Positions 3,367 through 28,367 of a stretch of DNA of 64,000 nucleotides are shown here, in pieces. Position 1 is the stretch's first letter. The number at the start of each line of letters is the position of its first letter. The position numbers and the translations under genes were made by a program. The stretch lies in the NCBI GenBank assembly GCA_000004985.1, contig GG738901.1; one strand, given 5' to 3'. The stretch is from Naegleria gruberi. Lineage: Eukaryota. Under the pieces are notes generated by a model, which was given only the letters and a program-made list of their open reading frames with translations, had not been told where the DNA came from and ran no database searches.

Positions 3367-4825
3367 ATGATTAGCGCTGTTCTTATTCTCAACTCTAGAG
3401 GACACACTCTGATCTCACGTGCCTACAGAGACGATGTTGAAACGTAAGTAATCCACTATCAAGGAATGTTATGGAGTACAAACTTGAAAATCTACAATAA
3501 CAATACAAAATTTAATATTTTTCGCTTCTCTCATCACATAATCAACAACAAAATTATACAAACAAATAATCATCATCAATAACAACAATATCAAATTATC
3601 TAACAATAGTCGTTCAATCTCTAGCGCTTTCAGATCACAAATTTTGGCTGCCAAGATTGCCGATAGATGTCCAGTTAAGACAATTGGAAGTGTTACTTTT
3701 ATGTTCATTCGTCATGAAGAAATGTACTTGCTCGCCGTAACAAAACAAAACGCTAGTGCTGCTCTTGTTTTTGAATTTTTGTATAAATTGATCTTTATTT
3801 TCCAATCTTACTTTGATGGAAAATTCACAGAAGATGCTTTGAAGGAAAACTTTTCACTTGTTTATGAATTGTTGGATGAAATCCTTGACTTTGGTTATCC
3901 ACAAAATTGTGAACCTCAAGTATTGAAGAATATTATTGTACAAGGTGGTATGAAGGATATCAAGCCACACGAACTTGAACAAAGATTGAAGGAAGTTACA
4001 GGAGCAGTTTCTTGGAGAAAGGCCGGAATTGTATATCGTAAGAATGAAGTATTTTTGGATGTTATTGAAGATGTGAATATGTTATTGAGTAACAAGGGTA
4101 CAGTTTTGAGCAGTGACGTCACTGGTCGTATTGTTATGAAGTGTTTGTTGAGTGGTATGCCAGAATGTAAATTTGGTTTGAATGACAAGCTTATGTTACA
4201 ACAAGAAAAGAGAACAGCCAACAAGAAGAGATATAAGGAAATTGATATTGATGACATTACTTTCCATCAATGTGTCAAATTGGGTAAATTTGATAGTGAT
4301 CGTACAATCAGCTTTGTTCCACCTGATGGTGAATTTGAATTGATGAGATATCGTATTACTGATGGTATTGTTCCACCATTCCGTTTACTTTCTCCTATTG
4401 TTCGTGAATTGAGTAAGACAAAGTTGGAAGTTAAGGTTACTATCAAGTCTGTTTTCCATGCTCGTTTGTTTGGTAAGAATGTTGTTGTCAAGATTCCATG
4501 TCCATCCAATACTGCTAAATGTAAGATTCACGTTGCTCAAGGTAAAGCTAAGTATAAGGCTGAAAAGGGTGCTATCGTCTGGACTGTTAAACGTTTCCCT
4601 GGTGATACTGAATTAACTTTGAGTGCCGAAGTTGATTTGATTTCTCAAACTGCTGAAAACAAGAAGTGGTCTAGACCACCTATTGGACTCACCTTCCAAG
4701 TGCCTATGTTCACTGCTTCAGGTTTGCACGTCAGATTCTTGAAAGTTTTCGAAAAATCTAACTATCAAGCTGTCAAATGGGTTAGATATATCACACAAGC
4801 TGGTGTTTATGAATCCAGAATTTAA
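3367..4825 (+). CDS. clathrin-adaptor AP complex mu subunit (AP-1/AP-2 mu family); join(3367..3443,3625..4825), about 426 aa
   Basis: Exon 1 encodes MISAVLILNSRGHTLISRAYRDDVET and ends at a GTAAGT donor at 3444. The acceptor CTAG at 3621-3624 gives the conserved ...DVETAFRSQILAAK continuation. Exon 2 carries mu-homology motifs CKFGLNDK, FHQCVKLGKFDSDRTISFVPPDGEFELMRYR and KWVRYITQAGVYESRI. Confidence 0.85.
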
Positions 4826-11377: not shown

Positions 11378-11722
11378 TCACATGTTAAATAGGAAATTGT
11401 TAGTCGTTTCTTGATAATGAACGATCAAGGGGTGGTTAATAATTGGGTTGAAATTATTGGATTGGATGGAATTAACCGTGACTAAGTTGTGTAGCACATT
11501 AAAAACGTCCTTAATGAGGTGGAATTGTAAAGTGGTGAAAATCTGATCAGGTTTGGATGATACTAGAAATAGACTTGTTGGTTTATGTGAATTCAAACAG
11601 AGGCTTGATATCATTGTTGAGCTTTCGACAGAGGTTGCTCTTACCATCTTCAATAGTAAATCACGTTCTATGAAGTACAATGTCATATCTGAAATTATTT
11701 GACCACCTACAGAACTATCCAT
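11378..11722 (-). CDS. hypothetical protein, 114 aa, weak
   Basis: ATG ORF between two minus-strand genes. No domain; it could be non-coding. Confidence 0.25.
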   Translation of the reverse strand: MDSSVGGQIISDMTLYFIERDLLLKMVRATSVESSTMISSLCLNSHKPTSLFLVSSKPDQIFTTLQFHLIKDVFNVLHNLVTVNSIQSNNFNPIINHPLIVHYQETTNNFLFNM

Positions 11723-11763
11723 GAAGTAGCATGGCTAACTGATGAATTAATAGAGAAAAATAT

Positions 11764-12972
11764 TTACACTTTTAAAGTCTTGATATTGGAGAGTAATGCA
11801 ATTCCTTCCTCAGTAAGATTGGCTTCCTCCAGATCAAGCTCAATAAGAGTGGGAATGCTGGCGAGATGTTTTGCCCCTTCGTCACCAATGTTAGACGAGG
11901 CTAGTCCGAGAGATAGCCCATATTTTGTGTTTGGCATGATGTAATTGCCTGATAATGAAAGAATTCTCAAAAATTTCATACCACTCAAAGGTTTTACGTC
12001 CTTAATATGATTTCCACTCAATTTCAGACAATTTAGGGTTTCCAATTTTGAAATTTCATCGAGAGATGATATCCTATTTACATCCAATATCAAACTAGTC
12101 AGATTTTTCAACTTGCTAATATTTCTAATATGATTATCGAAAATATAATTTCTTGTGAGGTCTAGATGAGTTAAGTGTGGTAAAGAATCAATCAAATGTG
12201 AAGTTCCTCCTTCTATTGTATCGTATGTGATTGTAAGGGAATGCAAATTCGTCAATTTACATAATTTTCTTGCTCCCGATTCAGTGATACCACCAAATGA
12301 AATTTCCAAGTTGGTAAGACTTATCAATTTAGAAATGCACTCAGCACCCACCATTCCTATTATATGTTTTGAAATTTTTAATGTTGTTAAATTGCTACCG
12401 AACTTGGAAAGGAGCTGTATTTGATTGGTATCATAATGACATGGAGTATTCGATATAAATGCAACTTCTCTCAAATTGTTGAATAATGTCAGCTCATCCA
12501 AATGTCTGAATTTTCCTCTCTTAAATAATATTTTAGATAGTTTGGGCAATGTTTCCAATACTGAAATATTTCTAATAGATCCTGTCAACTCTAATAATTC
12601 CAAATTGTGTAAACTTTTTAACCATTCTGCATCAATTCGTTCCATTCCAAAAATTCTCAACTCTTTCAAATTCTTAAATCCAGCAAAATATTCATCATTA
12701 AAATACCTCAAATAGGTGTTCTCCATTCTCATGATCAACTCTTGCAAATTACAATACTTGTTCAATACCTTCACTTGGCCAATCTCGTAAGAAAAAGTTA
12801 ATGTCATTGGCGTTTTCAACACTGCTCGATACCACTCTCCACAAACCAATTCACAAACTCTCACCACAAACCAAGAGGGAAGGAACCTAAAAACGTGATG
12901 CTCCAATATTTCGGGAGGAAGAAAAAAACGAGAGACAAAATTCTCCCTCTCCTTTCTCAGAGTTCTCCTCAT
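11764..12972 (-). CDS. F-box / leucine-rich-repeat protein, 402 aa
   Basis: ATG at 12972. N-terminal F-box-like LPPEILEHHVFRFLPSWFVVRVCELVCGEWYRAV, followed by more than 10 LxxLxLxxN-type LRRs. Confidence 0.75.
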   Translation of the reverse strand: MRRTLRKERENFVSRFFLPPEILEHHVFRFLPSWFVVRVCELVCGEWYRAVLKTPMTLTFSYEIGQVKVLNKYCNLQELIMRMENTYLRYFNDEYFAGFKNLKELRIFGMERIDAEWLKSLHNLELLELTGSIRNISVLETLPKLSKILFKRGKFRHLDELTLFNNLREVAFISNTPCHYDTNQIQLLSKFGSNLTTLKISKHIIGMVGAECISKLISLTNLEISFGGITESGARKLCKLTNLHSLTITYDTIEGGTSHLIDSLPHLTHLDLTRNYIFDNHIRNISKLKNLTSLILDVNRISSLDEISKLETLNCLKLSGNHIKDVKPLSGMKFLRILSLSGNYIMPNTKYGLSLGLASSNIGDEGAKHLASIPTLIELDLEEANLTEEGIALLSNIKTLKV

Positions 12973-13139
12973 TATTGATCATTTTTTTCAAATATTATTT
13001 AAAATCAATAGAAAATAGAACCAATCAAAACAATTGATTGTTGTGTTCTACAATGCAAGTTGAAACAACCATATAGGAGAGGACATTAAAATGTGCTATC
13101 AGACCTTAGTTACTACTAAGAATTAAAAGTTTAAAAAAA

Positions 13140-18835: not shown

Positions 18836-20407
18836 TTAGTTGTCCAACAAGTAATAACTACTGCTAGATGAATTGGATGTTTCATGTTCATGACTATTTG
18901 TGGTTACTGATAGCTCCTGTTTAATTTCTTCAATTTTCCCATTAGCATCATTGGTTTGCTTTTTGAAAATCTTAAAGTCCTCATAATCAAAATCAAATAT
19001 TACAATCCTACAAAAAAGAATGCAATAAAGAACATCTGTTAATATTTGAGTGTATGCTAGGAATACTCTGTCATTAACCAGCTTTGCAAATACTCCATTC
19101 AGATCAATAAAAGAAATTACCAATACGAAAAGTATGGAAAAGTTAGAGAGCTTGATAAACGGAACAGTATTCGAAACAATGTCAGACAGCTTTTTCAATA
19201 CAGAATTCACTCTACGTGAAGTAATAATAAACATGGATAGGCATAATACCTCACTCAACCACGAAATCGCAACATAGGTATAGAGAAAATATTGATCTCC
19301 AATTAATAATGGAATGGCAACTGTCACAAAGCATACGAACAAGACAGCAATGAAGAATAAAATCACAGCAATGATATATACCTTCTTAATGGAATAGTTG
19401 TTTGGCTTCCCCTGTTGATTCTGATTAATCAGAGTGGCCATTCCATACCATCTCATTACAATTGGGAATAATGAATAAAACTGCATCAATTGTGCCATCA
19501 TGAGAAACGTAGTCGCTACTGCAAAACTAGGTGTGAAATAAAGGGAATAATTGACAATGTAACATAGGGAAGAGAAAGTTAGAGCAAGTGAGGGAATTAG
19601 TCTAAGGATTGTGAATCCTGGTACCTTTTTGAAATAATTGACTGATTTTGGGATGAGTAGCAAAGAGATTGTCACAATGAATAACAGAGAAAAAACAATC
19701 AGGCCTCCAAAATCCAATGACTCTTTAAGAATATTCTCCCATCCATGTTTTACACATTCAAATTCAAAACGATTATGTTTCTCGCAATAGCAAACTATTG
19801 CATAACTGTCCATTAATGGACCAACTACAAGAGGAATTCCTATATTTACCGTTCCACAATATCTAATATCATTTGGAATGGATTCAATAATGTCCACAAT
19901 CCTAGTTCGAGAATCTATTAGTTTCGTATTGTTACAAGAATGTCCAAGACGAAGTTGATGATACTTTTCAAATCCATTCGCATTTCTACAATATTGACAA
20001 TAATTAATCCAATCATATATCGAGGTCTTGTTATCCCAAACTCCAGACCCCGAATCAATACATAAATCCGAACAATTAAAATTCATTTCATTTTCTAATA
20101 TCTTATTAGAAGCACATAAATTCCTCGAGCTATCATATCTTAACTCATTGATTTGAAAGGTGTCTCCTACTGTCAAGTGTGAATAATATTTTGCACCTTG
20201 TGGGACTGTAATTGATTCGCATGCAATAGGAGAGGGTATTCGAATAGGTTTGTAGATATTAAAATGTGTTGATTTTAGTTGAGAAATAAATTGTGTTTGG
20301 GTACAGTTTTTCCACTTTCCAATATTATTAACAACTTGTTGTGTTGTGGGAGTACAAAACCAAAGAAGAACCAAGAGGTAAACAATCCTCCTGACTAGTG
20401 GTGACAT
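18836..20407 (-). CDS. 7-transmembrane receptor-like protein with signal peptide and about 200-aa Cys-rich ectodomain, 523 aa
   Basis: ATG at 20407. Signal peptide MSPLVRRIVYLLVLLWFCTPTT, a Cys-rich N-terminal domain, seven hydrophobic helices between about residues 229 and 470, and a cytoplasmic acidic/Ser-rich tail. Confidence 0.65.
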   Translation of the reverse strand: MSPLVRRIVYLLVLLWFCTPTTQQVVNNIGKWKNCTQTQFISQLKSTHFNIYKPIRIPSPIACESITVPQGAKYYSHLTVGDTFQINELRYDSSRNLCASNKILENEMNFNCSDLCIDSGSGVWDNKTSIYDWINYCQYCRNANGFEKYHQLRLGHSCNNTKLIDSRTRIVDIIESIPNDIRYCGTVNIGIPLVVGPLMDSYAIVCYCEKHNRFEFECVKHGWENILKESLDFGGLIVFSLLFIVTISLLLIPKSVNYFKKVPGFTILRLIPSLALTFSSLCYIVNYSLYFTPSFAVATTFLMMAQLMQFYSLFPIVMRWYGMATLINQNQQGKPNNYSIKKVYIIAVILFFIAVLFVCFVTVAIPLLIGDQYFLYTYVAISWLSEVLCLSMFIITSRRVNSVLKKLSDIVSNTVPFIKLSNFSILFVLVISFIDLNGVFAKLVNDRVFLAYTQILTDVLYCILFCRIVIFDFDYEDFKIFKKQTNDANGKIEEIKQELSVTTNSHEHETSNSSSSSYYLLDN

Positions 20408-21193: not shown

Positions 21194-22411
21194 ATGGCAT
21201 GCTTTGGAAAGAAGGAATCTTCTTCATCGTCATCGAAAAAGTCGTCCCATGTCGTAAAGACACCACCAAAGAAAATATTATTGTTGGGAGCTGGTGATTC
21301 AGGAAAAAGTAAGTTTTCTATTATTCGAAAGCGTTGTTTACCAATCCACATATTATCATTTATCGGATGAACAACATAGGTACTATTTTCAAACAATTGC
21401 AAAGAATTTATAATAATGGTTTTCCTGAGGAAGAAAGAATTCTAAAGAAGAATATTATTTATGAAAATGTGTTGCGTAACATGATGAGTTTAATTAAAGC
21501 AACGCATACCTTTCAAATACCTATTCAAAATGAAGATAATAGAGAAAGGTAAGTTTTAATGGTGTGGACCCAATTTTAATATTATTCGAATAGAGCTCTT
21601 AAAATTGACCAACTTTCATCAAAGGTTTTATTGTCTATTGAACGAGTTTGGAGTTCGGAACTAGGTCAAGAAATAAAAGCTCTGTGGGAAGATCCAGGAG
21701 TGCAAGAAACATTCAAGAAGAAGAGTTCATTCCAAATTGAAGATTCTGCCCAGTACTATTTCGATAACTTAGATAGAATTTGCCAAAATGATTATATACC
21801 GACCGAAGAGGATATTGTCAGAGCTAGAATGAAAACAACGGGCTTAATTGAACAAAAATTCCATTCCCATGAGACAGATTTTGTAATGATTGATGTGGGT
21901 GGTCAAAGAAACGGTATGTTTTTCAAATCAGTATATTCTAAAATTCCCTATTATTAATTCAGAGAGAAAGAAGTGGATTCACCATTTTGAAGGTGTGGAC
22001 GTTGTTTTATTTGTGACAAGTATGAGTGAATTTGATCAAAAATGTTACGAAGACGATCAAACTAACAGAATGAAGGAGTCTTTACAATTATTTGAGGATC
22101 ATATCAATTCTAGATGGTTTACTGGAGCTCAAGTTTACTTGCTCTTCAACAAGTATGATTTATTTGAACAAAAAATTAATACCGGTGTCAAACTTTCTGA
22201 CACATTTGAAACTTATTCAGGCGAAAAGGATGTTACTCTTGCCAGAAACTTTATCATTAATATGTTTACATCAAAAGATATTAACTCTAAATTAGTGAAT
22301 GTGAGCTGTGTTACAGCTCTTGATATTACAGAGCTCGGAAAACAAATCGATTCGATAGTGAAATCCATCATTACTAGATGCAATCCACAAATGTCACAAT
22401 CACTAAACTAA
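21194..22411 (+). CDS. heterotrimeric G protein alpha subunit; join(21194..21308,21380..21548,21624..21913,21963..22411), 340 aa
   Basis: G1 LLLGAGDSGKST is split by a GTAAGT intron. Other conserved blocks are TIFKQLQRIY, RMKTTGLIEQKF, DVGGQRNERKKWIHHFEGV and a TCAT-like SCVTALD. The NKxD motif reads LLFNKYD (Tyr in place of the usual Lys), and the N-terminus is MACFGKK with no Gly2. Confidence 0.85.
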
Positions 22412-22430: not shown

Positions 22431-25400
22431 TTATAATATCAAAGTTTCACTAGTTGCCCCAACACTCAAAGTACTGATTGACGCAACATGGACAGTTTCA
22501 CTGTCTTCCTGTTGAGGTATCAAATTATCCTTGCTTTCCATTTTGTCTTCCGTATTACTATCATTTTCACTAGGGTTTTTCTCAGTGAAATCTGCTGTTT
22601 CATTGACACCCTCTTGAACTTCTGAGGTAAGAATTTCATTCTCTGCAGTCTTTTCAATTGAGATTTCTTGTGTTGGGAAATTGGAAGCATTGTCCTCTGG
22701 TGTAGTTTCTTGATCTTGGGGAGCTGATTGGTCCACATCGGAAACAATTGCTTCCACTTCTCCAATCGTAATAGGAATATCCTCTACTTTAACTTGATCA
22801 TTTTCCTCCTTTTCATTGTTGGTGTCTTCTATTTTAGTAGATACTTCATTCTCTTGTAGATTTTCAATTTTTTCAATTGGAGAGGCTATGTCTGAAACTT
22901 CGTTTGGAGCTTCTGGGTTAATAACTTCCTGAGATAATGTGTTTTCAATTGAATCCATTTCTGCTGGTAAAGTCTCTGGTATTGTTTCACTGACTTCTTG
23001 ATGTTGAGTAACAATTACTGGATCTGATTTCATTTCTTCAACATCACTAAATGTTAGTTGGCTAACATCTTCCACCAGAGTGACCTTCTCTTCAATTTCT
23101 TCGCTTTTATCTTCAGTCGAATTTAATATCGTTGGAGATTCTAAAATATTAGATTTGTTATCATTTGAGGAGTCTTGTTCTGTTGGACCCTGGGTAATGG
23201 TTTCATTCTCAGTCTTCTCTGGAGCAGTGAAATCTGAAGCAACTTTAACATTTCTCAAACCGCTTCCTTTCTTTAAACTAGCTCTAGCCTTTAATAGTGG
23301 ACTAAGGCTATTCTCTTCATCCAAATCCGAATAACTTTTAGATCTGATTGAGAGTTGTCTCTTCTTGAGGAAATCAACACTTTTAGTTGAAATTGGAGGT
23401 GTGGATGGTGTGGTAGGGGTGGAAGGTGTTGAGGGACTGCTTAGTGGACTAGATGGGCTGCTTGGACTCGATGGAGAACTGAGTATTTTGCTCTCTGACT
23501 GAATTCTCTTCAAGGTCAATGTACGCTTGAGAGCTTGTTGATTTTTACGTTCTTCCTTATCAAGATCATCTTTTGCCTTCTTGAAATGGTTAATGAAATC
23601 CTTTACAATAATTAAAAGAGGATCTCCAGGTAAAGACAGTGCCTCATCTTCTGTAGGATTAAAGTGGAAAAAGTCGCATGCCATCTTGTAGCTATTGTTC
23701 AACTTTTCAAAAAGAGATTCTACTTGTGAGACAGATTCGTTACATTTTGATAGGAAACTACTAAAGTTTGCCTCAATCTTGTGATTCTTCTCCTTTTTCT
23801 TGATGGTATCAATGTCTGGTTTCTTTGATTGAAATAATTCTCTTACATCTTGAATTTCTTTCAAATCTTGTTGAATAATATCCAATTTTATATTGAATAT
23901 GTCTGAACTACAAACTCCATAAGATTCAAGTTCAACTTCAAAATTAAATAATTCACTCTTTTCATTCTTTAAGGTTTCTGCTAAAAAATGAACCAGGGTT
24001 GTTTTAGGATTAATACTTGACTTGGTATCGCTCAACTTGGGTAAAATGTTCAAGTGGAAACCCTGAGCTTCTTCCAGTTGTGCTTTACCTCTGTTCATAT
24101 AATTACCTACTTTCAGCAACATGTGCAAAAGTTTTACGAATGACTTTGAATTCTGCAAATTATCTACAGTGTTCAATTTTGCAGTAATGGTGTCACTAAT
24201 TCTTGTTGTGTCAAATGTTTTCATGTGTTGCATGAGTTGAAGTCTAGTTGGTAGTATTGAAATTTCAGCCAATTTCCATGTCCACAATAAAGAAGGTCTT
24301 AGATTGTCAAAATACTTCTCCACAACCTCTTTCTTCTTTACAATTTCCTCAGTAGCTGGAACAAATTGAGAAAGTCCCTTAATTTGATCAATCGTCAAAG
24401 ATTCAACATTCATAGTATTGATTGCATCCAACAATGTTTTCAACTCGCAATATTTAAAAAGACCATTCACCAAAATTTCTAAATTTCTTGCCAATGATGA
24501 ATCAATAATGGTGTTCAACTCATCATCAATGGCTTTCTTTGGATTTTTAACTTTGGTTGAAGGAGAAGAAGTCTTTTTTGCAGAAAACAAATTGTCCAAT
24601 TTTTCAAAGATGGCTTTTTGTTCTTCATCCATTTCTTCGTCCTCATCTTCCAAAACCCAAACTGATTTAACCTTGTCTTTAGTATTTCTAATTGGTTTCC
24701 AGTGGATGTTCTTGGTCTTGGAGACCTCTTTTTTGACTTTTGGTTTCAAGAACCCTCCTGGTGGAGGTGGAACACCAGGTGGTGGAGGAATTCCACCCAT
24801 CATTGGAGGTGGTGGAATGCCAAATGGTGGAGGTGGAATAGTTACCTCAACAGGAGGTGGAGGCAATGTTATGAGAATAGACTTGGGATCTATAATTTCG
24901 AATGGATATTTGGGCAGAGCATCTAAATAGTAAATGTCACCATCAAAGTAAAATTCAGGTCTAGTCTTGTTTGAGAAGAGATTCAAAATCACTTTGAGGT
25001 AGTCTGGTTCTTCTTTTTGGAGTGGATTTTCAACCAGAGTCAATGCCTCCAAATTATCGAAGTAGGTCAAGGGATAAATCTGATTCCACTCTAGAATGTT
25101 ATTTCCGTGAAGATAGACCTGCTTCAACTTATCCTTATCACATGCCTGTAGGAGACCTATTACATTTTCCAAGTAATTGTTAGAAACATCCGCTATTTCC
25201 AAGTTAGGTAATTTAACAACTGAAAAATAATCTAAATTTTCCAGTAAATTAAAGCTTAGATCCAATACTGTAAGATTTACGGTACATATTGAATTATTCT
25301 TTGAGAATTTGATGTTAGAGATTGAATTGTGTTGCAGACAAAGATCAGCCAAGTTTGGTACATTCACACCAGGTAGCAATATTTTGTCAACGTTTGTTTT

Positions 25401-26240
25401 GGTCAACTTGAAATTCTTTAAATTCTTCCATTCCCTATTTTCCTTAAATATGGAATTGTTAATCTCTGCAATTTCGCAATTTTCTATAGACAAGCCCTCT
25501 GTGTGTTCCAGAATTGATTTTCCGAAGCAATCATCATTCTCCATTTTCGAAATTAATTGTGGGCAATCAATGAATATTAACTTATTAGTTTGTGAGTTGA
25601 CAATTTTATCGAACGAGTCAACAATTACATTCCTGTAGAAGGTAATTTGTTTGAGCTCATTAGAGTTTAAAATTGATCCCAAATTAAAAGTACAAGTTGT
25701 AGATTTTCCAGTTATTCTAATCTCTTTCAAGTAGTGGAAATAACTCAAATCTAATGTAATCTTCTCGCTTTCAGTTAAATGTTCAAATCTCCTCACTTTT
25801 TTGTAAAATATTTCAATACTCGAAACTATAGTTTTAAACTTGTTCATTATTATCTCCAAGTCATTATTCGTCACTTGGATTGTATCATAGCTATTTACAA
25901 TATTATCTATAATCCACTTTAAAATTTTGTTCTGATTGGCCTCCCTTTTTTGGGTTACCTCGAAATCTGCCAATTTTTCATTTAACTTTTCCAAATGGTA
26001 TGTTGATAGTGAAACAATCGTTCCATTATCATATAACTCTTGTTCGCTATTCGCCTGTTGAAGGTAGAGTGCCAGTAATTTAATGACTTTATCAGAGGCA
26101 TGACAATGTTTTCTATTCGCAGATGTATTCATCACAGTTGTTGTTGTGATGAAGGAATTCATTGTTGACTCGGATGATAAATCATCAATATTGGCCCTAG
26201 AAGTGACACTCTTCCTTATAATTGCATCATTTATGTTCAT
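22431..26240 (-). CDS. formin with N-terminal leucine-rich repeats (LRR-FH1-FH2), 1269 aa, single exon
   Basis: ATG at 26240. N-terminal LRRs (LTVLDLSFNLLENLDYF, LPNLEIADVSNNYLENV ...), an FH1 proline tract (IPPPPFGIPPPPMMGGIPPPPGVPPPPGG) and an FH2 with the hallmark GNYMN plus KTTLVHFL. The C-terminus is Ser/Thr/Glu/Pro-rich low complexity. Confidence 0.85.
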   Translation of the reverse strand: MNINDAIIRKSVTSRANIDDLSSESTMNSFITTTTVMNTSANRKHCHASDKVIKLLALYLQQANSEQELYDNGTIVSLSTYHLEKLNEKLADFEVTQKREANQNKILKWIIDNIVNSYDTIQVTNNDLEIIMNKFKTIVSSIEIFYKKVRRFEHLTESEKITLDLSYFHYLKEIRITGKSTTCTFNLGSILNSNELKQITFYRNVIVDSFDKIVNSQTNKLIFIDCPQLISKMENDDCFGKSILEHTEGLSIENCEIAEINNSIFKENREWKNLKNFKLTKTNVDKILLPGVNVPNLADLCLQHNSISNIKFSKNNSICTVNLTVLDLSFNLLENLDYFSVVKLPNLEIADVSNNYLENVIGLLQACDKDKLKQVYLHGNNILEWNQIYPLTYFDNLEALTLVENPLQKEEPDYLKVILNLFSNKTRPEFYFDGDIYYLDALPKYPFEIIDPKSILITLPPPPVEVTIPPPPFGIPPPPMMGGIPPPPGVPPPPGGFLKPKVKKEVSKTKNIHWKPIRNTKDKVKSVWVLEDEDEEMDEEQKAIFEKLDNLFSAKKTSSPSTKVKNPKKAIDDELNTIIDSSLARNLEILVNGLFKYCELKTLLDAINTMNVESLTIDQIKGLSQFVPATEEIVKKKEVVEKYFDNLRPSLLWTWKLAEISILPTRLQLMQHMKTFDTTRISDTITAKLNTVDNLQNSKSFVKLLHMLLKVGNYMNRGKAQLEEAQGFHLNILPKLSDTKSSINPKTTLVHFLAETLKNEKSELFNFEVELESYGVCSSDIFNIKLDIIQQDLKEIQDVRELFQSKKPDIDTIKKKEKNHKIEANFSSFLSKCNESVSQVESLFEKLNNSYKMACDFFHFNPTEDEALSLPGDPLLIIVKDFINHFKKAKDDLDKEERKNQQALKRTLTLKRIQSESKILSSPSSPSSPSSPLSSPSTPSTPTTPSTPPISTKSVDFLKKRQLSIRSKSYSDLDEENSLSPLLKARASLKKGSGLRNVKVASDFTAPEKTENETITQGPTEQDSSNDNKSNILESPTILNSTEDKSEEIEEKVTLVEDVSQLTFSDVEEMKSDPVIVTQHQEVSETIPETLPAEMDSIENTLSQEVINPEAPNEVSDIASPIEKIENLQENEVSTKIEDTNNEKEENDQVKVEDIPITIGEVEAIVSDVDQSAPQDQETTPEDNASNFPTQEISIEKTAENEILTSEVQEGVNETADFTEKNPSENDSNTEDKMESKDNLIPQQEDSETVHVASISTLSVGATSETLIL

Positions 26241-26792
26241 TCAGTAATAATACTAGAAGAAAACTAATGTTATGATGATGATAGAGCACTCTCTGTGGTG
26301 TCAATATTATAATCAAGAAATGTCTTCCGAACCAACAAATGATTGACTGAAGTTAATTTCTTGATGTAATTGTGAAGTACTAGTAGAGACTATTTTTATG
26401 ATGAAGAATAAACAACTTGGTTTTTGATTATCATAACGAGATGATCGGCTTCCAGCATTATGATGATAATTGATGAGAACTCAACCGAACAGCCTTTTCG
26501 CTTGGAACCTCTCTCACACAAAGGAATATTAAATCCCTTCAATTCTGTGCAGACCTTCACCTTATTCCTCTCAAATCGTTCATTCAGCCTATTTATAAGT
26601 GTTAAGTGTTTTTCTTCCTTAGAGATGCTATTTTTAGAACATAGTTTCCCTCCTAAAGAATTCATGAGATGGCATTTGAAAATCCATCTTCCACTGAACT
26701 CTAAAGAATTCTGTGTTCTGGCTTGTAGTTAAACGGGCAGATATTCCCCTGTTTATATCAATCACAAGGCAGAAAAAAACAATATTATTGAA

Positions 26793-28367
26793 ATGTTTGG
26801 GAGAATCAATGAGCAAGGCTCTAATACAAGTGGATTCACCTTTTTATCAAATACTTCACAACCAACAACTACTCAACCATTTAGCTTCGGTTTTGCAGAT
26901 TCTGATGATGGGGACGAGTCACCACTATCAGCCACTACAGAAATAGACTTTGCAAGTAAGTAATAGTTTCACAATCCGCAAGCTCAACAACAGCACAATT
27001 GAGCATTAGATCAGTTAGCATCAAGTTATTCCAATGAAGCAACCAATGGAGCATCTAGTCAAACTGGTACTACTTCTGGTGGATTCAACTTTGGATTCAC
27101 TCCATCACAACCAGCAACCACTACTCAAACTGGATTCAATTTTGGAACAACTGCAGAAACATCCAATTCTACACAATCTTCACTTGTTGGCAATTCAACA
27201 ACTCAATCTCAAACAAGTAATTTCAGTTTTGGAGCAAAAACACAACCACCATCACAACTAGCCATTACTTCTACTGGATTTGCCTTTGGTACTACTCAAT
27301 CAAAACAAAGTGGATTAACCCCTTTTAGTACAGCAAATACTGAGCCAACAGTTCGTTTCTCTTTTGGACCCACCAATCTTTATGGCTTTATAACCATTCC
27401 AAAATATGGTGGTTATCAAAGTAATGATTTCCATGATTTAAATATTGAAATTTATGATGAAAATGGACTTTTTACTACAATCAAGACTCATAGAATCAAA
27501 GTTGGACTAAATGATGGATTATTATCTCAATTGGTAAGGGCTTGTACCAAGAAAAATGACATGTTTACCTTAGAATTAGCAACATCTTTCATTCCAGAAA
27601 CAAAGTTTGGAAGAATCAAAGCCATTGCTTTACAACATGCTATCAGTTCCTATATTGAATCATCCAAGGTAAAGGCAGAAGATATTTTCCAAGTTATGCT
27701 TGTTATGGATTACTTTGGCATTCCAACATTCCAACCCTTAGTCTCTCACCTTGAGTCAACCTTTAAAGATTCTGAATTCTGTGCTCGTGCTTATCTCGGA
27801 AGTTTCAACAATTTCTTTTCGACCTATTCGCTCCCTCAATCTTCTTCCTTCTTTTCCTTATTTAGAACTGCATTCAACATTTTAGTAAATGGAAAGGAGC
27901 TCGAAAATCGAACAGCTATCAAAGAATTGAACAGACAATTATTTGAAACTCAACTCAAAAAGTCGGTCACTGCAACAGAGTTACCACATATTTTGAGTGC
28001 TATTGAAGTTTGGATTTTACATAACTTTTCTTCGTTGAATGAGACACTGTCCTATCAAATTTGCAGTGTACTGGACAATCTCCAAATCAATCAAATCCAA
28101 ACCATTGTAATGATGATTCAGTTACTAACTTGTAATTCTCCACAATTTTATTTTATTAACTCAATTAGTCCAGAATGGAAATTGAAACTCATTAACAAGT
28201 ATGCTAGTTGCCAGCCAGTCCAACCACAAACTCAATCAACTCCAATACAACCACAACCACAACCACAACCACCAACTCAACAAACTCCACCAGTACAACC
28301 TCCGAAGCAAAATTTCAACCCTCCTCCACAACAATACATTCTACAAACCCCTGGCAAGGGATTTTAA
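26793..28367 (+). CDS. FxFG-repeat nucleoporin-like protein with an uncharacterised C-terminal helical domain; join(26793..26955,27010..28367), about 506 aa
   Basis: Exon 1 contains FSFGF. A GTAAGT donor at 26956 and a TAG acceptor at 27009 restore the frame. Exon 2 has repeated FNFGF, FNFGT, FSFGA, FAFGT and FSFGP motifs, then a structured C-terminal region and a PQ-rich tail. Confidence 0.6.

Follow-up and report, generated by a model that had tools for sequence, protein, structure and literature searches.

The 64,000-nucleotide stretch of Naegleria gruberi DNA studied here (one strand of contig GG738901.1, assembly GCA_000004985.1; hereafter the window) encodes a formin with a predicted leucine-rich repeat (LRR) solenoid in its N-terminal part. 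The gene occupies positions 22431..26240 on the minus strand, to which all formin features given below belong. Its coding sequence is complete and consists of a single exon: one uninterrupted open reading frame (ORF) of 1269 codons, whose first ATG is directly preceded by a TGA and which ends in a stop codon at 22431-22433. The 1269-residue product combines the FH1 and FH2 domains of a formin with a helical head and the LRR solenoid, which precede FH1, and with a basic segment, which follows FH2. The GBD/FH3 and DAD of Diaphanous-related formins are absent, and the domain order is conserved across three species. At the G+C content of the window (~33%), one stop is expected per ~14 codons; from the base composition, we estimate that 1269 codons would remain free of stops by chance with a probability of ~2e-42, and the last 295 codons alone with one of ~2e-10.

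The gene has been catalogued before. In supplement 1 of their formin inventory, Grunt et al. (2008; PMC2386819) list Naegr15 (JGI protein 52512) at scaffold_57:54431-58162, as a single exon of 3732 nucleotides. The LRR-formin ORF is Naegr15, because subtracting exactly 32000 from these coordinates yields window positions 22431-26162, so that the stop codon coincides and translation would begin at Met27, and because 52512 falls between the JGI identifiers of the window genes on either side (52509 and 52520); the identification is thus one of coordinate arithmetic and flanking identifiers. The window is identified as N. gruberi by three further ORFs, which match exactly the proteins XP_002672009, XP_002671934 and XP_002671927 of this species, all encoded on a 309-kb scaffold. 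In the 2008 inventory, Naegr15 was recorded without an N-terminal domain or any extra domain, and both a signal peptide and a transmembrane segment were scored absent (Grunt et al., 2008; PMC2386819).

The core of the protein is that of a formin, as the first-pass annotation of this DNA, made from the letters alone, had already concluded from four or more poly-proline stretches and the motifs GNYMN and KTTLVHFL. There are five PPPP tracks (at residues 460-494), which lie in an FH1 region (residues 456-500; 24741..24875) with a proline content of 47% that is conserved in both orthologues described below and begins within 20 residues of the LRR cap. We presume that these tracks bind profilin-actin. 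The FH2 domain (residues 502-887; 23580..24737) matches Pfam FH2 (PF02181) with E=1.9e-51 and 175.8 bits, compared with a cut-off of 34.8, and spans positions 4-372 of the 372 in the profile. Among solved structures, it is closest to the FH2 domain of mDia1 (E=2.6e-30), followed by those of DAAM1, FMNL3 and INF2, and the nearest database proteins outside the orthologues are animal Diaphanous formins. Three features that mark a formin in sequence are in place: an FH2 domain above the threshold, the actin-binding isoleucine and lysine, and an FH1 region directly N-terminal to FH2.

Mutation of the isoleucine (I1431 in Bni1, I845 in mDia1) or of the lysine (K1601 in Bni1, K994 in mDia1) abolishes actin assembly. 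In the alignment with mDia1, I589 of Naegr15 lies opposite the isoleucine of NLSIFL (mDia1 I845) and K740 opposite the lysine of LRDTK (mDia1 K994); the two aligned mDia1 residues are 149 residues apart, equal to 994-845, and the residue mapping is therefore consistent. Besides this knob isoleucine and post lysine, the domain keeps the lasso tryptophan W514 (NIHWKP) and GNYMN at residues 712-716, and KTTLVHFL is found at residues 746-753. No feature of the FH2 sequence points to inactivity. As judged from these alignments, the FH2 domain is Diaphanous-like and retains its catalytic residues.

The LRR solenoid comprises ~12 rungs and a C-terminal cap (residues 139-440; 24921..25826) and is SDS22-like. 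The first-pass annotation had described the first ~450 residues as built from canonical LRRs. The presence of a solenoid is borne out, but it spans only residues ~139-440 (~300 residues), the first 138 residues not being LRRs; likewise, five canonical repeats are indeed found, beginning at residues 297, 323, 347, 372 and 397, but the canonical consensus fits only 5-8 of the ~12 rungs. The rungs at 139-294 are degenerate, among them repeats beginning at 196, 255 and 274, and the cap that follows the solenoid is of the SDS22/U2A′ type (PDYLKVILNLFSNKTRPEFYFDG). Within residues 139-440, the strict motif LxxLxLxxNxL occurs five times, where 0.43 occurrences are expected, and a relaxed version allowing conservative substitutions occurs eight times, compared with a shuffle mean of 1.45; none of 20,000 shuffles reached either count. 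The tandem repeats are of the form LxxLxLxxNxI(L) and the length (22-26 residues) that characterize the SDS22-like class. Finally, in a sequence search of the PDB, residues 271-422 were matched by decorin, dynein light chain 1, U2A′, TBCE and others, with E=1e-5 to 1e-2.

A structural model points in the same direction. It was obtained in a second AlphaFold2 run, from a 25-row alignment in which the query and the two orthologues were joined by 22 LRR fragments drawn from search matches, and reached a predicted local distance difference test (pLDDT) score of 84.2 and a predicted template modelling (pTM) score of 0.84. In this model, a helical head is followed by a β-solenoid of ~12 rungs that extends to residue 401 and by a cap hairpin at 429-438, that is, by the curved β-solenoid with a C-terminal cap that is typical of the SDS22-like class. 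The top ranks of a Foldseek search with the model are held by the Nischarin PX-LRR, SDS22, internalins and LRRC8, and the LRRs of Rsu1 and Roco are also among the fold matches. The first-pass annotation had named an armadillo or FH3 fold as one outcome that would overturn its proposal; such structures are absent from the fold-search matches, and the model and the fold searches return only LRRs. Residues ~139-440 are thus shown, at the level of a structural model, to have an LRR fold.

The solenoid is preceded by two regions of different character. Residues 1-47 (26100..26240) form a low-complexity, Ser/Thr/Asn-rich N-terminus that is not conserved: its identity to the orthologues is 13-17%, and their N-terminal extensions are longer (~130-165 residues) and unrelated to it. 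In this region, the start codon is ambiguous between M1 and M27; the first in-frame ATG is at 26240, whereas the JGI model begins at Met27 (window 26162), and both lie within the unconserved low-complexity part. Residues 48-138 (25827..26099) constitute the helical head, which is delineated by the AlphaFold2 model, with helices at model residues 2-93 (protein residues 45-137), and by its conservation among the three orthologues (35-42% identity). The head shows no similarity to GBD/FH3, and an exhaustive HMMER search, described below, matched it only in one of the orthologues and revealed no homologs outside the three proteins.

As the first-pass annotation had claimed, the usual GBD/FH3 module is indeed replaced. 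Neither Drf_GBD nor Drf_FH3 nor Drf_DAD of Pfam matches the 1269-residue protein at E<=1, and no DAD motif of the MDxLL type is found after residue 887. A degenerate GBD/FH3 was rejected on the basis of hhalign, in which a profile of the three N-termini yielded a probability of 0.5% against a profile of eleven GBD/FH3 regions; as a positive control, a second Naegleria formin (P0120) was compared with the same profile, and its N-terminus yielded 98.7%. With GBD, DID/FH3 and DAD undetected, the protein does not belong to the class of Diaphanous-related formins. Nor is it a transmembrane formin like those of plant class I, given that neither a transmembrane segment nor a signal peptide is detected: the highest Kyte-Doolittle mean over 19 residues is 1.12, and since no 19-residue segment exceeds this value, the LRR is cytosolic, in contrast to the extracellular N-terminal parts of plant class I formins. 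Lastly, it cannot be assigned to the leiomodin/tropomodulin class, as there is no Pfam match to WH2 or Tropomodulin and no such chain among the PDB matches or the top fold matches.

In place of a DAD, FH2 is followed by a basic, Ser/Pro-rich segment (residues 900-975; 23316..23543) that carries two motifs. According to an alignment of the C-termini, both the first, [KR]R[IV]QSE at ~911-917, and the second, RRKxSLKSKSFSDL at 958-972 (KKRQLSIRSKSYSDL in N. gruberi), are kept in all three orthologues, and the net charge of the segment is similar across the three proteins (+6 in N. gruberi, +7 and +7 in the others). The second motif looks like a site for basophilic kinases and resembles the polybasic stretch beside DADs. 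We regard the segment as a candidate phospho-regulatory element rather than a DAD. Beyond it extends an acidic tail (residues 976-1269; 22434..23315), which is probably disordered; residues 975-1269 have a net charge of -52 and contain 17% Glu, 11% Ser and 9.5% Thr, and no tandem DNA repeats of note were found in the tail. The first-pass description of an acidic tail of ~300 residues instead of a DAD is accurate for this protein, but the other family members do not share this tail: the orthologues terminate 21-37 residues past the SKSFS motif and the ~295 acidic residues are found only in N. gruberi.

The two orthologues are the N. lovaniensis protein XP_044545994 (P0001; 1145 residues) and a protein of 1071 residues encoded on a 4.9-kb environmental contig (hereafter P0124). 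Any two of the three proteins are 43-47% identical, and all three are collinear over the whole region between the helical head and the C-terminal motif, both included. The degenerate LRRs resemble the head in their identity (35-42%), the canonical LRRs with the cap reach 48-54% and the FH2 domain 48-53%, while the low-complexity N-terminus and the tail are essentially unalignable. The canonical LRRs and the cap are thus conserved equally to FH2, which argues for a function of the LRR and for selection on LRR and FH2 as parts of a single protein.

This comparison also bears on the possibility, raised in the first-pass annotation, that an LRR gene and a formin gene have been read as one. It could be taken to favor such an artefact that neither the 1269-residue product nor the 1243-residue product starting at M27 was matched exactly in the protein collection. 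However, the frame is continuous and without a stop, the JGI model consists of a single exon, the LRR cap reaches FH1 within 20 residues, and the identical order of LRR, FH1 and FH2 is found in N. lovaniensis and on the independently assembled environmental contig, so that three independent assemblies agree. For these reasons, a merger is very unlikely, to the point of being hardly credible, and we treat the architecture as that of a single gene.

Outside these three proteins, we found no further member of the family. An exhaustive HMMER search with residues 45-455, run against 1.84 billion representative proteins, brought up a single true relative, P0124 (E=2.4e-74). All other matches align only to residues ~245-435, those examined (seven with Pfam and ~40 more by their sequences) are generic LRR proteins, and none of the 58 other matched proteins contains an FH2 domain. 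In the opposite direction, the LRR part was matched only in the N. lovaniensis orthologue among ~135 proteins from the FH2 search, a set that included a non-formin LRR protein (P0195). A scan of JGI metagenome contigs yielded one weak, generic LRR match and no further member. A word-index protein search was empty for the N-terminus and gave no new member for a profile of the three sequences, but it also missed P0124, and its negatives are untrustworthy for LRR-rich queries. Within the collections searched, the LRR-formin appears to be restricted to the Naegleria lineage.

What might such a protein do? The first-pass annotation had suggested a different mode of autoinhibition or recruitment, and we infer the same from the sequence. 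With moderate confidence, we propose that Naegr15 is an active formin that would be targeted or regulated via a partner bound to its LRR, and not by a DID-DAD autoinhibition that is relieved by Rho. The FH2 dimer would nucleate actin filaments and ride on their barbed ends, while the short FH1 would supply it with profilin-actin. The concave face of the solenoid would bind a protein partner that sets the place or the timing of formin action. The most likely second control point would be the RRKxSLKSKSFSDL motif, through phosphorylation by a basophilic kinase, and this motif may possibly also contact the acidic-to-neutral LRR.

Several observations weigh against this proposal. In N. gruberi, the Pfam LRR models match residues 295-420 only with scores under the gathering thresholds (LRR_9, 16.8 vs 30.5; LRR_8, 16.5 vs 27), although the orthologues pass the cut-off of 27 (LRR_4, 45.7 and 27.9; LRR_8, 28.2 and 30.4). 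A first AlphaFold2 run with the single sequence of residues 1-455 yielded a model that could not be used (pLDDT 39). The alignment for the second run was seeded with LRR fragments over residues ~245-440, which had been chosen by an unbiased search, and the model leans towards an LRR there; residues 45-245 are supported by three sequences only, with a pLDDT of 72-92 across residues 139-245. The three sequences found for the family are also too few for an analysis of co-variation or surface conservation. Furthermore, the net charge of the LRR is -10, -1 and -7 in the three proteins, so that a match in charge between LRR and basic tail carries little weight as evidence. Finally, the formin evolves much faster than the neighboring G-alpha (43-47% vs 87-90% identity), which would also fit a role that is dispensable or adapts quickly. 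This fast divergence, together with the shortness of FH1, could even suggest a decaying or catalytically inactive paralogue that is kept as a scaffold only. We hold this to be very improbable: FH2 is, together with the LRR, the most conserved part of the protein, the isoleucine, the lysine, the lasso tryptophan and GNYMN are retained, and the frame is intact in three species. Because the catalytic residues are kept, we favor an active FH2 over an inactive paralogue.

The same parts could also be connected in another way. LRR proteins such as SHOC2, yeast Cyr1 and Rsu1 bind GTPases, and the LRR of Naegr15 might accordingly be an independently evolved substitute for GBD/DID, which would clamp FH2 or the basic C-terminal motif until it is released by a GTP-bound small GTPase of the Ras/Rho family or by G-alpha. 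Such a clamp would suit a protein that lacks GBD/FH3 and DAD but conserves a basic motif in its C-terminal part, and whose LRR is acidic in two of the three orthologues; in addition, the LRRs of Rsu1 and Roco are among the fold matches, and a convergent G-alpha neighbor is conserved in all three species. Still, we consider it unlikely, since the charge of the LRR is not consistently acidic and since the adjacency to G-alpha, with stop codons 18-29 nucleotides apart, occurs in a loosely collinear region and is explained by plain synteny. Recruitment or regulation through an LRR-bound partner is the interpretation that we favor.

With Diaphanous-related formins, such as mDia1 and Drosophila Diaphanous, Naegr15 has in common the FH1–FH2 core with its isoleucine and lysine, and theirs are the closest FH2 domains both among solved structures and among database matches outside the orthologues. 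These formins have a basic stretch beside their DAD, and Naegr15 is likewise basic after FH2. Unlike them, it is devoid of GBD, DID/FH3, a dimerization or coiled-coil region and DAD, and instead has a helical head and an LRR solenoid. It is well known that formins can carry other modules (PTEN, TPR, PDZ, transmembrane) in place of their usual N-terminus, and Naegr15 is a further instance of this, next to the PTEN-FH1-FH2 formins of plant class II and to those with TPR, PDZ, PH or transmembrane parts in protists, plants and animals. Many formins with exchanged N-terminal modules were catalogued by Grunt et al. (2008; PMC2386819), where the LRR is not among the partner domains. PTEN- and TPR-bearing formins were also present among our database matches.

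As to the solenoid, the LRRs of SDS22 (PPP1R7), U2A′, dynein light chain 1, DRC3, TBCE and Nischarin are 15-24% identical to that of Naegr15, and at this low identity there is no orthology with SDS22-class proteins, many of which act close to the microtubule and basal-body apparatus. These proteins are also without FH1–FH2 and have no detectable counterpart of the helical head (48-138). By contrast, leiomodin/tropomodulin, Flightless-I and CARMIL resemble Naegr15 in that they pair an LRR with an actin-regulating module, but they belong to other LRR classes and use other actin modules (WH2, gelsolin, capping-protein-binding). In leiomodin, the order is LRR, proline-rich region and WH2, and the proline-rich region follows the LRR as FH1 does in Naegr15. 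One could imagine that the LRR of Naegr15 contacts actin itself and assists nucleation in the manner of the tropomodulin/leiomodin LRR; this seems highly doubtful to us, given that no tropomodulin or leiomodin was matched in the PDB sequence search or among the top fold matches, and binding of a protein partner remains our preferred role for the LRR. Flightless-I is reported to regulate Diaphanous-related formins in trans (PMC2871490).

The first-pass statement that an LRR–FH2 architecture is not among the well-described classes of Diaphanous-related formins agrees with the literature that we searched for formin and LRR, with or without Naegleria, in which no description of an LRR-FH1-FH2 protein was found. 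The LRR is not mentioned in Grunt et al. (2008; PMC2386819), Pruyne (2017) or Velle and Fritz-Laylin (2020; PMC7594500), and the locus tag NAEGRDRAFT_52512 was not found in the literature searched. The combination is, however, already visible in databases, as automated Pfam annotation shows LRR and FH2 on the N. lovaniensis protein.

The surroundings of the gene contain three further loci of note. A multi-exon G-alpha gene (21194-22411, plus strand) is convergent with the formin, with 19 nucleotides between the stop codons. Both N. lovaniensis and the environmental contig have the same tail-to-tail pair, with gaps of 18-29 nucleotides; the coordinates at these two other loci are 11468-13121 (minus strand; L005) and 3514-4270 (minus strand; L004). 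As the wider region is loosely collinear between the species, the pairing may reflect no more than synteny, with overlapping 3′ ends helping to preserve it, and we have set aside a functional link between formin and G-alpha as unsupported. Near the 5′ end of the formin lies an ORF with a Gln/Pro-rich C-terminus and no Pfam match (27531-28367, plus strand), preceded by a stretch that possibly encodes Gly/Phe-rich repeats (26790-27500, plus strand); together (26790-28367, plus strand), they may encode a nucleoporin-like or otherwise low-complexity protein. Lastly, a 523-residue ORF (18836-20407, minus strand), whose N-terminus is hydrophobic and whose N-terminal half is rich in Cys, shows several apparent hydrophobic segments and no Pfam match and may encode a lineage-specific membrane protein.

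The practical value of these findings is limited, as this is a fast-evolving family of three sequences, so far found only in the Naegleria lineage; of some small practical use is the recognition of an N-terminal domain in Naegr15 that the 2008 inventory left unannotated. Its interest lies in a wider context. N. gruberi possesses 14-15 formins, and the directional persistence of its crawling relies on actin networks that depend on formins (Velle and Fritz-Laylin, 2020; PMC7594500). The DID-DAD/Rho system of animals, fungi and amoebozoans underlies almost all of our models of formin regulation. Against this background, a Diaphanous-like FH2 domain coupled to an LRR provides a natural experiment on how else an FH2 domain may be switched or placed.

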